From a virus (taxonomy: Duplodnaviria; Caudoviricetes), in the IMG/VR virus record IMGVR_UViG_3300028591_000083, positions 32,001-96,000 of that record: a DNA stretch of 64,000 nucleotides. The stretch is one strand, 5' to 3'. The notes beneath the pieces are model-generated. The model was not told where the DNA came from, made no database searches, and worked only from the letters and a program-made list of their open reading frames with translations. Positions 2,034-37,899 of the stretch are shown piece by piece (the stretch's first letter is position 1; each line of letters opens with the position of its first letter). A program made the translations under genes and the position numbers.

Positions 2034-2573
2034 TCAATAGTAGAAATGAATTACAACACTTCCAACTGGTTTTGCTGTTGCAAGTTCTTGAATGTAGAAA
2101 TTGAAATCATAATCTTTTATAAAGCGGCGCAAATCTCTTTCCAGTGAATCTGCGTTTGCTTTGAAACCGGCAAATGCCTCAACAGCTATTGTTTCATCTC
2201 TTGTTTTACTCGGCTCATCAATAATAGTAAAACCATTATTTTTTGCAATCTTCTTAATCATGTCTTTGTTTGCTTCATAAAACTTTCTGATATCATCGTA
2301 GTAATCTTCATTTAGGCTTTTGCACTTTGTAGTTTTCTTGCTCTCATACAGCTCACCGAAATATTCCTGAATCCCTACAAGAGCACGATGAATTTCAAAA
2401 AATGCACGTACATCTTCATCATAAGGTCTTACACCATCAGCAATAGAAGTTGATAAAGATTCATATGCTCTTTCTGTTGCTTCTTTTGTATCAATCAACA
2501 TATTCTTAATATCTCTATAAGTTGCTTCGATTTCTGATTTATCAATATAGTCTTCTTTAATAATAAGTTTCAT
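2034..2573 (-). CDS. Tagged (MKLIIKE) two-module protein
   Basis: Likely start ATG 2573; internal linker LYESKKTTKCKSLNE. Confidence 0.75.
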   Translation of the reverse strand: MKLIIKEDYIDKSEIEATYRDIKNMLIDTKEATERAYESLSTSIADGVRPYDEDVRAFFEIHRALVGIQEYFGELYESKKTTKCKSLNEDYYDDIRKFYEANKDMIKKIAKNNGFTIIDEPSKTRDETIAVEAFAGFKANADSLERDLRRFIKDYDFNFYIQELATAKPVGSVVIHFYY

Positions 2574-2584
2574 TTTTACATTCC

Positions 2585-3511
2585 TCATTTCTGGATAGAA
2601 CTCTTCTTCAACTTATGGAAAATACCATTGAATCTTTCATCGAATACTTCAATGTACTGAGAATCTTCACCGTCAGATAAAAGAAGTAGTTTTCTAGCAT
2701 CCCAATAACCGCTTCCTTGTTCATCTCTATCATAAACAATGTCTACAACTTCATATGGGATATAACCTTTGTTTCCACCATTCGGCAGATGACCGAACTG
2801 AAAATCTCTAATTACGAAATCACCTTTTTTAAGACTGTCAGTATCACAATTATAATCTTCAATATGATCTTCTACCTGACAGAACATCTTGTATGGTTGA
2901 CCTAGCTTTAGATGATCTAGGTGTTCATATACACACTTTACTTTATTGTGTCTTGTATTTCTCAACATCATACTTTCTTTTACAGAACGTCTTTTTGCTT
3001 CTTGTAGAATTCTTCCTAAGAAATAATCCATTTTTGATTTTAATGTTCTAAGCCATTCATCCATTGTTGACTGAATATCTGAGGATACATCTGGATATAG
3101 TTCTGTGATTGCTACGACTACATTATTTAGAACTGATATTGTAGCATCTACACCGTCCATAAGATTGAATCCAACACAATCCGGAACTTCAATATCCCAC
3201 TGTGTCAGAACGTCTTTTGCACTGTTTAGATTATGAATGAAGTGTCCATCCTCACAGCAAATCTCTAAGCAAGTATCACTATAATCATTTAGGAGTTTAT
3301 AAAGTTCATCTGTTGCAAGATGAAGTCTTGTAAACTCTTTTCCACAAGCGTTAATATGAATAGTATGAATATCATTAGATGCTAGCATGAATACAAAACC
3401 AAGAGCTTCTAAATCTTCATATGTACTTGAAGTATCACCTGTGTTTTGTTGTGGTTCTACCTCAAAATCAGGAGTGAATACAACTTCGGTATCTTCAAAA
3501 ATTAGTTTCAC
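2585..3511 (-). CDS. Tagged (MKLIFE) protein with Dps/ferritin-like domain plus second module
   Basis: GTG 3511 after GGGGAG SD; HTIHINACGKEFTRLHLATDELY..D..LE resembles the Dps signature. Confidence 0.7.
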   Translation of the reverse strand: MKLIFEDTEVVFTPDFEVEPQQNTGDTSSTYEDLEALGFVFMLASNDIHTIHINACGKEFTRLHLATDELYKLLNDYSDTCLEICCEDGHFIHNLNSAKDVLTQWDIEVPDCVGFNLMDGVDATISVLNNVVVAITELYPDVSSDIQSTMDEWLRTLKSKMDYFLGRILQEAKRRSVKESMMLRNTRHNKVKCVYEHLDHLKLGQPYKMFCQVEDHIEDYNCDTDSLKKGDFVIRDFQFGHLPNGGNKGYIPYEVVDIVYDRDEQGSGYWDARKLLLLSDGEDSQYIEVFDERFNGIFHKLKKSSIQK

Positions 3512-3525
3512 ACGCTTTCTCCCCT

Positions 3526-3885
3526 TTACATTAGTTTTGACTTTATTTCTTTTATAATAAGAACACAAGTTTGAAGTTCCACTGAGATATTATCTACTGT
3601 GGTTGTGTTCTTTGTGCAATCATATCTTGCCGGATTTTTAAGAAGTACAGTTTGAATACTCATAATTCCTCTTGGAGTAAATCTTACTCGAACTTCTACA
3701 TTATCTGAAATTGAAAATGACCCAGAACCGTTTGATGCTGTAAAATCATATCCTAGCTTTTCTCCGATTTCAAATAACTGATCTTCAATTACTACATCTT
3801 CTACATCATCAACGATTTCATCTTCAATATCTTCATCTTCGTGGATAGGAACATTTCTATATCTGTTCTTATACTTAAATCGCAC
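3526..3885 (-). CDS. Hypothetical protein (basic N-terminus ending PIHE, then acidic stretch)
   Basis: ORF in operon, SD present. Confidence 0.7.
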   Translation of the reverse strand: MRFKYKNRYRNVPIHEDEDIEDEIVDDVEDVVIEDQLFEIGEKLGYDFTASNGSGSFSISDNVEVRVRFTPRGIMSIQTVLLKNPARYDCTKNTTTVDNISVELQTCVLIIKEIKSKLM

Positions 3886-3907
3886 CGCAAATCCCCACCT
3901 TGCTATT

Positions 3908-4153
3908 TTAATTGTAGTTTAGCTTATCAAATAAGGATTCAGTAATATCAGCATTTGGTGTTAATCCATGATGTTCTTGAAATAACATTAGAGCCTTGAT
4001 GAACTTTTTATCACGCTTAAACGGTACACTTTCTCCTTCTGACAAATATTCAAACTTTACAAGTTTATCCTGAATCCATTTGATTCTAGCTTTCATAGGC
4101 ATATTAGAAAATTGAGTGAATTTCATCTGACCAAATATCCTCCGATTTTTCAT
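3908..4153 (-). CDS. Small peptidoglycan-binding-domain protein
   Basis: IKWIQDKL..KALMLFQEHHGLTPNADI..LFDKL resembles PG_binding_1. Confidence 0.6.
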   Translation of the reverse strand: MKNRRIFGQMKFTQFSNMPMKARIKWIQDKLVKFEYLSEGESVPFKRDKKFIKALMLFQEHHGLTPNADITESLFDKLNYN

Positions 4154-4538
4154 CTTTGCAATAGTTATCTACCACATATAATAACTTCTTTATGATTAAC
4201 TGTAAATCTTCTATCTCCTTTGTTACGTATTCAAGAGCTTCTTCTGAGACAAATCCTTGACATCCTTTAAGAAATGCCTTACAATTTTGAACGAATACAG
4301 CATTATCATCTTTTAGTTCCGAGGCTTCAAGATAAATATCATTCAGTAATCCGTCAATCATTTTGAAGAATGAGTTATTAACTTGCTGTAAATCTGTATA
4401 TACCATATAATAAACTAGCTGTCTTGATAACTCTCGTCTTATTGAAATAAGAACATCATCGGCAGTTCTTTTATAATCAAGAACCATGTCTTTGTTTATT
4501 TGGAATGCCGGTTCTTCTTCGTGATGCAGCCAAATCAT
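4104..4538 (-). CDS. Hypothetical helical protein
   Basis: 144 aa ORF coupled to neighbours. Confidence 0.65.
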   Translation of the reverse strand: MIWLHHEEEPAFQINKDMVLDYKRTADDVLISIRRELSRQLVYYMVYTDLQQVNNSFFKMIDGLLNDIYLEASELKDDNAVFVQNCKAFLKGCQGFVSEEALEYVTKEIEDLQLIIKKLLYVVDNYCKDEKSEDIWSDEIHSIF

Positions 4539-36577: not shown

Positions 36578-36615
36578 AATAAAAACATCCTTTCTATTTT
36601 TCAAATAATAATAAA

Positions 36616-36681
36616 AAATTACCCATGTGAACCATACTTAAACGGTTCACATGGATATTGTAATTTGTTTGTTTTTTTTTG
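36616..36681 (-). promoter_or_regulatory. Leader element (A9 tract + bulged hairpin + U tract)
   Basis: Stem 36616-36666. Confidence 0.6.
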
Positions 36682-36728
36682 CGTTTTGAGTAGATAAATT
36701 TATAATTTTCGTATTGTAATTCAACACA

Positions 36729-37178
36729 TCACCAAACAGAAACGCCTAGTAATTCTGCGTCATCTTCAGTGATATCTCGCTCAGTTACAAGTTTAATCGG
36801 AATATAAACATCCACAATATATAGTTGAAGATCTCCATTTTCCCATTCTTTAATATCAGATGAATCTGCCTCTAGTCCATCTTCATCTCCTAAGAAATTA
36901 GTAACCAATCTATTATCAATAATTCCCCAGTCTTTAGGATCAGAAGGAGCATCAACTTGTACTTGCACTGTTTTAATAAAATCTTCTATTGAACTATATG
37001 TTCCACGAACATCAATATCCCACTCATTGACAAATTTACCCTGTCCAACACCATAGTGATCTTCATGCATAGTTACCCATCCTTTACCTGCTAAAATGCG
37101 TAACCTACCTTCCAAGCTCTCTTTAATATTTCTTCTGCGCATTTTACGATTAGATTCTTTCATATACTTCTTTACCAT
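36729..37178 (-). CDS. Double-tagged (MVKKYMKE-SNRKMRRRNIKE) protein
   Basis: GAAAGGA SD; tandem tags. Confidence 0.8.
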   Translation of the reverse strand: MVKKYMKESNRKMRRRNIKESLEGRLRILAGKGWVTMHEDHYGVGQGKFVNEWDIDVRGTYSSIEDFIKTVQVQVDAPSDPKDWGIIDNRLVTNFLGDEDGLEADSSDIKEWENGDLQLYIVDVYIPIKLVTERDITEDDAELLGVSVW

Positions 37179-37213
37179 GTTAAAACATCCTTTCTATTTT
37201 CAACAATAAAAAA

Positions 37214-37280
37214 ATTAAGTAGTGAGTACAAGCGGTCTTTCCTGTACTCACTACTTAATGTATTTTGGTGTTTTTTTTTG
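37214..37280 (-). promoter_or_regulatory. Leader element (A9 tract + 17-bp hairpin + U tract)
   Basis: Perfect stem attaagtagtgagtaca/tgtactcactacttaat. Confidence 0.6.
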
Positions 37281-37305
37281 TGATTTTGATTATATAATTC
37301 CTATA

Positions 37306-37899
37306 TTATCGCCAAATCTCATAGAGTTCTGTTTCAATATCAATCAGGCGGCTAACAATATCATCCATGTTATAATTATCCGGATATTTATTAACCATAT
37401 AAGAAATCTTATCAATATCTTCCTTTAGATGTTCACATACATCATTTACTGTTTCAATGGTATATGATTCATTCATTACACTCTTTACTGATATTGTTTT
37501 TCTTGTTCGGCTCTCAGTCTTTCCACTATAGTTACTTACAATCTGATTTACAATACCGCCAGTGCGCTCAAGTTCATTTGTGGCTCCTTCAAATGTAACA
37601 GTATCAATTCTATGATCTTCATATTCATTCTCAGAACGCCATTTTACTGTAATAAATGTATCGCGGTCTGGATAGTATGGATCATCACCGAAATCATACC
37701 AAAGAGCAACAAAACCAATAGTCTTACCGTTCTTTAGAAGATAAATTGTAGCATTTCCACAATCATCATAAATCTGACCTTCATGAGTTTCTGTTTCAAC
37801 ACCGTATTTCTTTGCAATGCGTCCTTGAACAGCATTCATCATTCTATAAAATGCTTTCTTGTTTTCGTTCGTGTCTGATTCTTTCATTAGCTTAATCAT
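37306..37899 (-). CDS. Tagged (MIKLMKE) two-module protein
   Basis: Internal KTESRTRKTISVKSVMNE junction. Confidence 0.8.
   Translation of the reverse strand: MIKLMKESDTNENKKAFYRMMNAVQGRIAKKYGVETETHEGQIYDDCGNATIYLLKNGKTIGFVALWYDFGDDPYYPDRDTFITVKWRSENEYEDHRIDTVTFEGATNELERTGGIVNQIVSNYSGKTESRTRKTISVKSVMNESYTIETVNDVCEHLKEDIDKISYMVNKYPDNYNMDDIVSRLIDIETELYEIWR

Follow-up and report, generated by a model that had tools for sequence, protein, structure and literature searches.

The capsid-targeting sequence (CTS) of bacteriophage T4 has the consensus MKTYQEFIAE. The T4 head protease gp21 chops the scaffold core into short fragments and removes CTS propeptides of 10 to 20 residues from internal proteins (PMC5694885). 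Its preferred cleavage point is behind the Glu of I/LxE, with weaker cutting at xxE, and the catalytically dead form is H85A/S140A (PMC12991175, preprint). Cuts of the SPN3US type take off long N-terminal propeptides that are mostly discarded (PMC10052503). The polyvalent proteins of phages and conjugative elements, described by Iyer, Burroughs, Anand, de Souza, and Aravind in 2017, are shuffled multimodule chains that were proposed to be codelivered with DNA and were likened to viral polyproteins; their processing was proposed to occur via embedded peptidases, either zincin-like metallopeptidases (MPTase) or assemblin-like enzymes (PMC5512222). Here, we analyzed a 64,000-nucleotide window (G000:C1:32001-96000) of an IMG/VR virus record of 207,349 bp, in which a short N-terminal tag ending in L-x-[ILM]-x-E recurs inside a set of multimodule open reading frames (ORFs). 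We think it probable that these ORFs encode capsid-cargo polyproteins of a jumbo phage with a T4-type head, which would be cut at the internal tags by the head protease. Feature coordinates are positions in the window unless they are given for G000, an L-numbered locus, or another record, and a slash within a motif marks the predicted point of cleavage.

About 15 genes of the window, and about 25 of the whole genome, begin with a tag of the form M-(V/I)-[KR]-(K)-L-x-[ILM]-x-E, after which comes S, D, A, or N. Otherwise unrelated proteins share this short N-terminal propeptide ending in I/L-x-E, and it is kept in their homologs. Twenty-two tagged genes form one block (G000, 25 to 70 kb) directly upstream of the genes for terminase, portal, protease, and major capsid protein (MCP). 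The 207-kb genome of this rumen phage has a GC content of 32% and carries nearly all of its genes on the minus strand. Downstream, the tagged genes of the window are followed by an intein-bearing large terminase, the portal, the protease, a split MCP, and neck/tail genes. The MCP belongs to the Gp23 family (PF07068, E 1.1e-17) and the portal to the Portal_T4/Gp20 family (PF07230, E 1.1e-47). The protease matches Peptidase_S77 (PF03420, gp21 family) with 44.6 to 47.4 bits at a cutoff of 27. When it was aligned to T4 gp21 (PDB 5JBL), its His (in ELDHPE) and Ser (in GVSSRG) were placed opposite the mutated Ala positions of that chain. By these family matches, the phage encodes a T4-type head and a gp21-family protease with catalytic His and Ser. 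The protease domain (about aa 1 to 170 of the ORF at G000:18163-19863) is joined to about 400 residues of coiled coil, which we read as scaffold-like. In the same module, the large terminase (G000:C1:22463-24910; L003:4463-6910; 815 aa) has an intein inside it (Pfam Intein_splicing, E 2.3e-10), and the MCP coding sequence is split into at least two pieces (G000:C1:17241-18098 and 15841-16245).

Nine ORFs of the window, all on the minus strand, carry the motif between or ahead of modules. The two-module ORF at 2034 to 2573 begins with the N-tag MKLIIKE/D (2553 to 2573) and has the junction LYE/SKKTTKCKSLNE/D (2307 to 2351). Its neighbor at 2585 to 3511 combines a Dps-fold module with a beta-rich C-module and carries the N-tag VKLIFE/D (3494 to 3511) and the junction LQE/AKRRSVKE/SMMLRNTRHNKVKCVYE/H (2924 to 3007). 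The ORF at 8120 to 9850 (N-tag MKLRISE/S, 9830 to 9850) encodes an N-domain and a BspA-type leucine-rich repeat (LRR) region, then the junction KTE/SLKLYISE/D (8273 to 8305) and a C-module of 50 aa. Two modules are also encoded at 24967 to 26250 (N-tag MKLKLLNE/T, 26227 to 26250; junction KKE/AFTRKKLFINE/T, 25609 to 25650), at 35364 to 36158 (N-tag MVKKLNE/R, 36138 to 36158; junction ENE/SKSRTRKRSIKE/A, 35856 to 35900), and at 37306 to 37899 (N-tag MIKLMKE/S, 37879 to 37899; junction KTE/SRTRKTISVKSVMNE/S, 37468 to 37521). The three modules of the ORF at 30513 to 31478, which starts with MVKKLRIRE/S (31452 to 31478), are separated by FTE/SKSVCE/A (31125 to 31151) and MTE/SKRRIKE/S (30816 to 30845). 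The ORF at 36729 to 37178 consists of an N-tag, a basic spacer, a second site, and one module (MVKKYMKE/SNRKMRRRNIKE/S, 37119 to 37178). The ORF at 34641 to 35249 has two modules and the internal string RNE/RLAKNRPMKLMIRE/S (34965 to 35015) without an N-tag; the DNA of its internal tag is 77% identical over 26 nucleotides to that of the 30513 N-tag (repeat family D19). At tags and second sites, position P3 is occupied by L, I, V, M, or F. Each of the ten junction strings given in the original prediction was present in the minus-strand ORFs named there. Several ORFs of the program-made list began a few codons too early; homologs put the true start at the tag, and the corrected ORFs are 2034 to 2573, 2585 to 3511 (GTG start), 8120 to 9850, 24967 to 26250, and 35364 to 36158.

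Tag-like junctions were roughly 3 to 6 times denser in N-tagged proteins than in the remaining proteome. A position-specific scoring matrix (PSSM) was trained on the N-tags with the initiator Met masked, and 200 shuffles served as the null. At a score of 10 or more it gave five internal hits in tagged proteins (1.08 per 1,000 aa), compared with 0.18 per 1,000 aa in untagged proteins and a mean of 0.36 hits (maximum, 3) in the shuffles. We also searched for a composite pattern, defined as E, an acid-free K/R-rich stretch, and [LIVMFC]-x-E. It occurred 10 times in the 5,491 aa of tagged proteins, whereas 300 shuffles yielded 1.5 ± 1.2 occurrences and never more than 5. Untagged proteins held 32 occurrences in 59,289 aa, 6 of which were located in the protease/scaffold ORF and a neighboring 402-aa ORF of the head module.

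The same motif stood out when [LIVMF]-x-E-S was counted in each ORF against shuffles without preselection of ORFs. The protease/scaffold ORF ranked highest (11 observed, 1.65 expected), followed by the 402-aa head-module ORF (5 observed, 0.9 expected), the 30513 polyprotein (4 observed, 0.49 expected), and MCP exon 1 (2 observed, 0.2 expected). That the motif is most overrepresented in the protease/scaffold ORF fits the I/L-x-E rule of gp21. About 10 of the scaffold sites are kept in two related phages (52 to 64% identity). The MCP site [ML]-x-E64/ATNSSNIP is kept in two related phages as well and lies just ahead of the start of the Gp23 profile; T4 gp23 loses about 65 residues. The distribution of the motif on scaffold, MCP, and cargo matches the behavior of T4 gp21. 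The 402-aa ORF (G000:C1:10705-11913; L002) belongs to the neck/head module and lies 21 kb ahead of the window. Its sequence combines an extremely acidic region, a zinc-ribbon-like CxxC..CxxC motif, basic linkers, and a conserved C-terminal LSE/S followed by a basic tail, and it had no match among Pfam or PHROG families. It is probably a further protease substrate or an internal head protein.

Structure models were obtained for two of the multimodule proteins. For the 30513 protein, AlphaFold2 (61-row alignment) gave a model with three confident domains (residues 8 to 91, 120 to 210, and 230 to 320), and the predicted local distance difference test score (pLDDT) falls below 50 at residues 97 to 118 and 219 to 226, which are the two junctions. 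The predicted template modeling (TM) score of 0.42 indicates that the arrangement of the domains is not fixed. The middle module (aa 126 to 210) matches positions 8 to 90 of the 93-position profile of phrog_4264, a 93-residue stand-alone family, with an E value of 9.9e-23. Foldseek against the PDB returned nothing below an E value of 0.1 for any of the three modules, and the VIA wide structure search was uninformative (best Z score, 6.1). The 2585 model, built on 26 rows, starts with a disordered segment that holds the tag and an acidic region (1 to 26), followed by a helical bundle (27 to 174), a junction with low pLDDT (176 to 194), and a beta-rich domain (197 to 308). The bundle has a Dps fold (Foldseek probability, 1.00; TM score up to 0.84), in agreement with a match of residues 51 to 184 to phrog_3636. 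In the 8120 protein, the LRR region (Pfam LRR_5, E 1.7e-66) ends ahead of the junction. In both models, the junctions are thus predicted to sit in low-confidence linkers between independently folded domains. Most modules had no Pfam match, and the only domains recognized in tagged proteins with Pfam, PHROGs, and Foldseek were Dps-like, LRR, and DUF3293/S-adenosylmethionine (SAM) lyase-like.

We then compared the ORFs with related 200-kb phages (ENA contig L004 and IMG/VR records G001, G002, and G003) and with metagenomic proteins, which are given P numbers. In six of the nine ORFs, modules appear to have been gained, lost, or swapped, since they occur alone, with another partner, or with an extra insert, and the break is always at a junction. 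The C-module of the 2034 protein (aa 90 to 184) is a stand-alone 98-aa gene in L004 (L004:17146-17442) that starts with MIKLITE/GYYDDIQKF, the internal counterpart being KSLNE/DYYDDIRKF. The 50-aa C-module of the 8120 protein forms a small separate ORF in G001 and G002 (KLRINE/D and KLRIKE/D) and is internal to other proteins of L004 and L007, each time behind a KLRI-x-E/D tag. The N-module of the 24967 protein is found alone in G001 and G002; its C-module is found alone in G002 (two copies) and L007 with the N-tags MSIKLNILDE/K, MKLHIQE/R, and MKIMIKE/G and is also joined in G002 to a different N-module behind KPTIKE/S. The C-module of the 35364 protein exists alone as P0221 with the N-tag MKLRLHE/S, and P0222 has the 35364 N-module and junction followed by an unrelated C-module. 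P0224 and P0225, which are about 80% identical, are homologs of the 37306 protein that carry an extra module of about 85 aa at its exact junction, bracketed by KTE/NRKRNTRKQSVTE/A and KTE/SVKHGMNE/S.

A related-locus search with the whole 30513 protein and a search for it in G001 to G003 found none, and tblastn matched only the middle module in L004 and nothing in G001 or G002. An exhaustive profile-free search gave 935 hits, with the middle module at any position in proteins of 84 to 1,176 aa and the other two modules recurring in other contexts. In L004 (12716-13753), a 345-aa gene unites a 30513-type middle module and the module of the singly tagged 29783 gene through E/SISRKSKKSRIRE/R, and the 29783 module is also found downstream of a phrog_4264-type domain in P0004, P0012, and P0031. 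The whole 36729 protein aligns to the C-terminal part of P0009 (54% identity, E 1e-52), where it follows a phrog_4264-type domain after ..VVEE/SSVRTMRTGRSLNE/D. Its N-tag, MVKKYMKE/S, aligns with the last helix of that domain (..IAKKYSVVEE/S), and this alignment suggests that the 36729 gene arose by fission inside a junction.

Across 139 copies of the phrog_4264-type domain, [LIVMFC]xE occurs no more than 18 aa upstream in 91%, compared with 45% in the null; when S, A, or G was required at P1', the values were 68% and 17%. Untagged stand-alone copies begin directly at the domain core, as does the 87-aa homolog gp9 of Bacillus phage Grass, encoded in the terminal-repeat (early) region, and the tag is therefore a separable unit and does not belong to the fold itself. 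Long metagenomic phrog_4264-type proteins of a second group (P0026, P0037, P0042, P0062, P0066, P0067, P0070, and others) have another conserved N terminus, M..[IL].DAFKAL.D[IV].DD, and many K-x-L-x-E-[SA] joints; this N terminus may be a different address tag in another phage lineage. These comparisons bear out each computational expectation of the original prediction, whose interpretation is supported in part. It had likened the 30513 middle module to small stand-alone phage proteins, which both phrog_4264 and Grass gp9 are, and had placed the junctions outside independently folding modules, where the linkers of the 30513 and 2585 models indeed lie. The fusion of genes behind a tag is supported where a stand-alone homolog carries an N-tag at the place of an internal junction in the fused form, and the phage protease that had been assumed is encoded as a gp21-family enzyme with a scaffold part saturated with the same motif. 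Stand-alone or shuffled homologs were anticipated in relatives in general; they exist for the six ORFs, with breaks exactly at the junctions, but not for 2585.

All 67 homologs of the 2585 protein (50 to 98% identity) are collinear. Within this family, the junction glutamates E179 and E196 (..NE/SMM and ..VCE/HL) and the glutamate of the tag are invariant or almost invariant (26 to 67 homologs), whereas the linker between the invariant glutamates varies in length and sequence.

From these observations, we infer that the chains would be packaged, cut at their internal sites, and ejected and that a double cut would free the basic spacer, and we propose the following course of events. The N-tag of 6 to 10 residues, basic and then L-x-[ILM]-x-E, would act like the T4 CTS and target the protein to the prohead's scaffold core. 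It would end in a cut site of the S77 prohead protease, whose predicted motif is [LIVMF]-x-E, cleaved behind the Glu and with a preference for Ser, Ala, or Asp at P1'. Placed behind a K/R-rich stretch in the disordered linkers between modules, this motif would allow the chain to be cut into proteins of 5 to 25 kDa during head maturation. Among the mature products would be a Dps-fold DNA binder, an LRR protein, and a phrog_4264-type module. The products would be retained in the capsid and pass into the cell together with the DNA, and short basic peptides between two sites would be released. The basic segment looks like a separate unit: in addition to its internal position, it directly follows the N-tag in the 36729 protein and several homologs and forms the C terminus, as E/S plus a basic tail, in several homologs and in the 402-aa ORF. 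It is possible that the basic peptide is a released DNA-binding or scaffold-binding piece. In evolution, genes would fuse, split, and find new partners exactly at the tags, with N-tag and internal junction turning into each other.

Several observations weigh against the polyprotein reading. The phage and its relatives are known here only from sequences and predicted structures, and the T4 cleavage rule was transferred to a protease only weakly similar to gp21 (E 2.7e-6). About half of the upstream first sites (KTE, KKE, RNE, and ENE) have K, R, or E at P3 in place of a hydrophobic residue, and in the Dps-like 2585 family the first site, ILQE/A, is not conserved. The conserved linker peptide of that family (SMMLRNTRHD..) could have a structural or binding role, and because the family is always collinear, a junction is not always a shuffling point. 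The 34641 protein lacks the N-terminal tag by which the other chains would be addressed. The T4 late promoter TATAAAT was not enriched upstream of tagged genes (2 of 26, compared with 16 of 295 untagged genes).

The poor fit of half the first sites to the protease rule would be expected if the proteins were uncleaved multidomain chains of the polyvalent type, in which the internal tags are flexible linkers or fusion relics and at most the N-tag is removed. Polyvalent phage proteins that act whole or are packaged whole are known, the N4 virion RNA polymerase (vRNAP) being one of them (PMC5512222), and a fusion origin of the junctions is demonstrated by the homologs. We nevertheless consider this explanation unlikely. 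Relics would hardly account for junction glutamates that are invariant amid variable surroundings, for a motif that precedes 91% of the 139 domain copies in very diverse proteins, or for the saturation of the scaffold, the expected protease substrate, with that motif. The junctions are also exposed and disordered in the models, so that a Glu-specific head protease would have access to them. A different kind of processing, as in phiKZ or SPN3US, would make everything upstream of the last junction an assembly or targeting propeptide that is cut repeatedly and cleared, leaving only the C-module as a mature protein. SPN3US head propeptides of 111 to 254 residues undergo several cuts and are mostly lost (PMC10052503), but the upstream modules of the present proteins are conserved globular families (Dps fold, LRR, and phrog_4264, the last widespread as a stand-alone early gene), and one module that is upstream here is C-terminal in another protein. 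With these modules in view, we regard a long-propeptide model as improbable.

Two further explanations would dispense with the junctions as cleavage sites. If internal translation starts or unrecognized gene boundaries coincided with the internal tags, the modules would be made separately; the 34641 ORF does have an in-frame ATG at its internal tag, and stand-alone homologs begin with Met at the same place. However, at 9 of 10 junctions the tag lacks both a start codon (ATG, GTG, or TTG) and a Shine-Dalgarno sequence of the GAAAGG/AAGGAG kind that precedes real starts, no Shine-Dalgarno sequence precedes the internal ATG of 34641, and in homologs the open reading frame runs on, conserved, across the junctions. 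These observations leave very little room for this explanation. The related idea that the basic linkers are in-frame Shine-Dalgarno sequences or former intergenic DNA was rejected upon codon read-out, which gave no consistent ribosome-binding site or start codon. The pattern could also arise by chance or from the composition of an AT-rich, K/E-rich proteome, and untagged proteins do hold some tag-like strings (24 at a PSSM score of 8 or more). Chance or composition is, however, a scarcely credible source of a 3- to 6-fold enrichment over untagged proteins with counts beyond those of all shuffles, at positions that coincide with domain boundaries and shuffling breakpoints.

Besides the multimodule ORFs, the minus strand of the window carries singly tagged genes at 669 to 1484 (MKLYIRE/S; homologs in L004 and L007), 1740 to 2021 (MKLIIE/N), 5271 to 5543 (MVRKLYIKE/A), 5556 to 5858 (MKLLYE/Y; 65 to 75% identical across all four related loci), 28534 to 29073 (MKLFILE/D; homolog in G001), 29783 to 30496 (MKLFIKE/S), and 36308 to 36577 (MIRRLHE/D). 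A further tagged protein (MKLYIQE/N) is encoded at G000:C1:26512-27105 (L003:8512-9105). It matches DUF3293 above the cutoff (50 bits) and a SAM lyase below the threshold, and it could be a capsid-delivered anti-restriction enzyme. A similar hairpin with a T-run is found between successive cargo genes of the 35- to 38-kb region (35276-35323, 36195-36256, 36603-36674, and 37208-37265), and these genes therefore look like individual cassettes. The elements correspond to repeat families D1, D7, D8, and D11 and to inverted repeats I2, I4, I6, and I15. An ORF pair of 214 and 409 aa on the plus strand (16493-18356) has N termini resembling an IS607-type serine recombinase and TnpB, and a 411-aa ORF between cargo genes on the minus strand (26307-27542) has a basic N terminus and is possibly an HNH/RRXRR-type endonuclease.

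With 8.6 kb as the query, megablast retrieved nothing from cultured phages. Judged by its portal (37.5% identity), the nearest cultured relative is Streptococcus phage vB_SagM-GXN1 (L030; PQ819873.1:105696-147000); the portals of this phage, Listeria phage LIS04, and Bacillus phage SP-15 show 33 to 38% identity to that of the rumen phage. Small ORFs around its head genes start with MRLVRLTE/D, MRLVKLTE/S, MRLIRLNE/D, and MLLINKSLNE/S, so a cultivable phage probably has the tag system too.

If the junctions are cut, dozens of ready-made small proteins would be delivered at DNA entry from a compact and easily rearranged set of polyproteins. The T4 CTS paradigm would be widened from a few single proteins to a modular cargo grammar, and a sequence rule would become available to predict injected proteins of uncultured phages, which are candidate anti-defense or takeover factors. 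Cleavage at the tags would also account for the occurrence of one set of small domains both as early genes of some phages, as in the terminal repeats of Herelleviridae, and as tagged late cargo of other phages, and it would provide natural designs for putting several foreign proteins into T4-type heads. More tentatively, the tag may be a joint with three functions, namely, capsid address, cut site, and fusion or recombination breakpoint, by which T4-headed phages of Firmicutes and many uncultured phages swap plug-in cargo, and the basic peptides may themselves be products, for example, DNA counterions or scaffold-binding pieces. We regard this wider proposal as possible but doubtful.

The core precursors of adenovirus, pVII and pre-mu, are cut by adenain, which frees small, very basic peptides inside the DNA-filled capsid. 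This parallel is an analogy only, as proteins, protease, and virus are unrelated, and DNA binding by the basic spacers of the rumen phage would be speculation. T4 CTS cargo, multisite cleavage in giant phages (PMC10052503), and shuffled polyvalent proteins with embedded peptidases (PMC5512222) have already been published, and in the papers searched for mention of the capsid-targeting sequence, we found no description of CTS-type tags as intermodule joints for a trans-acting head protease. In phiKZ, 201phi2-1, and SPN3US (gp175/gp245), many head and ejection proteins are substrates of a gp21-related protease, which often cuts one protein at several sites. The motif of these giant phages, S/A/G-x-E or A-x-E, is not that of the present phage, which shares a hydrophobic P3 with T4 and has conserved globular modules in the upstream parts of its chains.

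With polyvalent proteins, the multimodule ORFs share at least two unrelated domains per chain and architectures that are shuffled across elements. Published polyvalent proteins draw on a catalog of 131 domains with disparate enzymatic activities (PMC5512222). The modules of the rumen phage are small and mostly without an assigned function. A SprT-like domain, typical of published polyvalent proteins, is encoded in L004 (13898-14755) as a tagged (VILKEE..) zincin in a separate gene among the cargo genes. No embedded peptidase of the MPTase or assemblin-like type was found in the nine ORFs by Pfam and PHROGs scans, and in contrast to the polyvalent proteins, a trans-acting head protease and conserved linker motifs are implied.

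A close likeness is to T4 IPI to IPIII, Alt, and gp24 with their CTS and gp21. General Pfam and PHROGs scans of the tagged proteins found none of the IPI-III/Alt families, although no direct comparison with T4 proteins was made. In both systems, a short propeptide at the N terminus ends in [L/I]-x-E, the serine protease is of the gp21 family, the head is of the Gp23/Gp20 type, the scaffold contains these sites in large number, and unrelated cargo proteins share one address tag. The tag consensus of this phage, basic-L-x-I-x-E, differs from that of T4, its protease is fused to a coiled-coil scaffold-like region, and it has about 25 tagged genes, compared with about 5 in T4. Whereas the T4 cargo is a single module that is cut once, the tag of this phage recurs between modules, which predicts several mature proteins from each gene.

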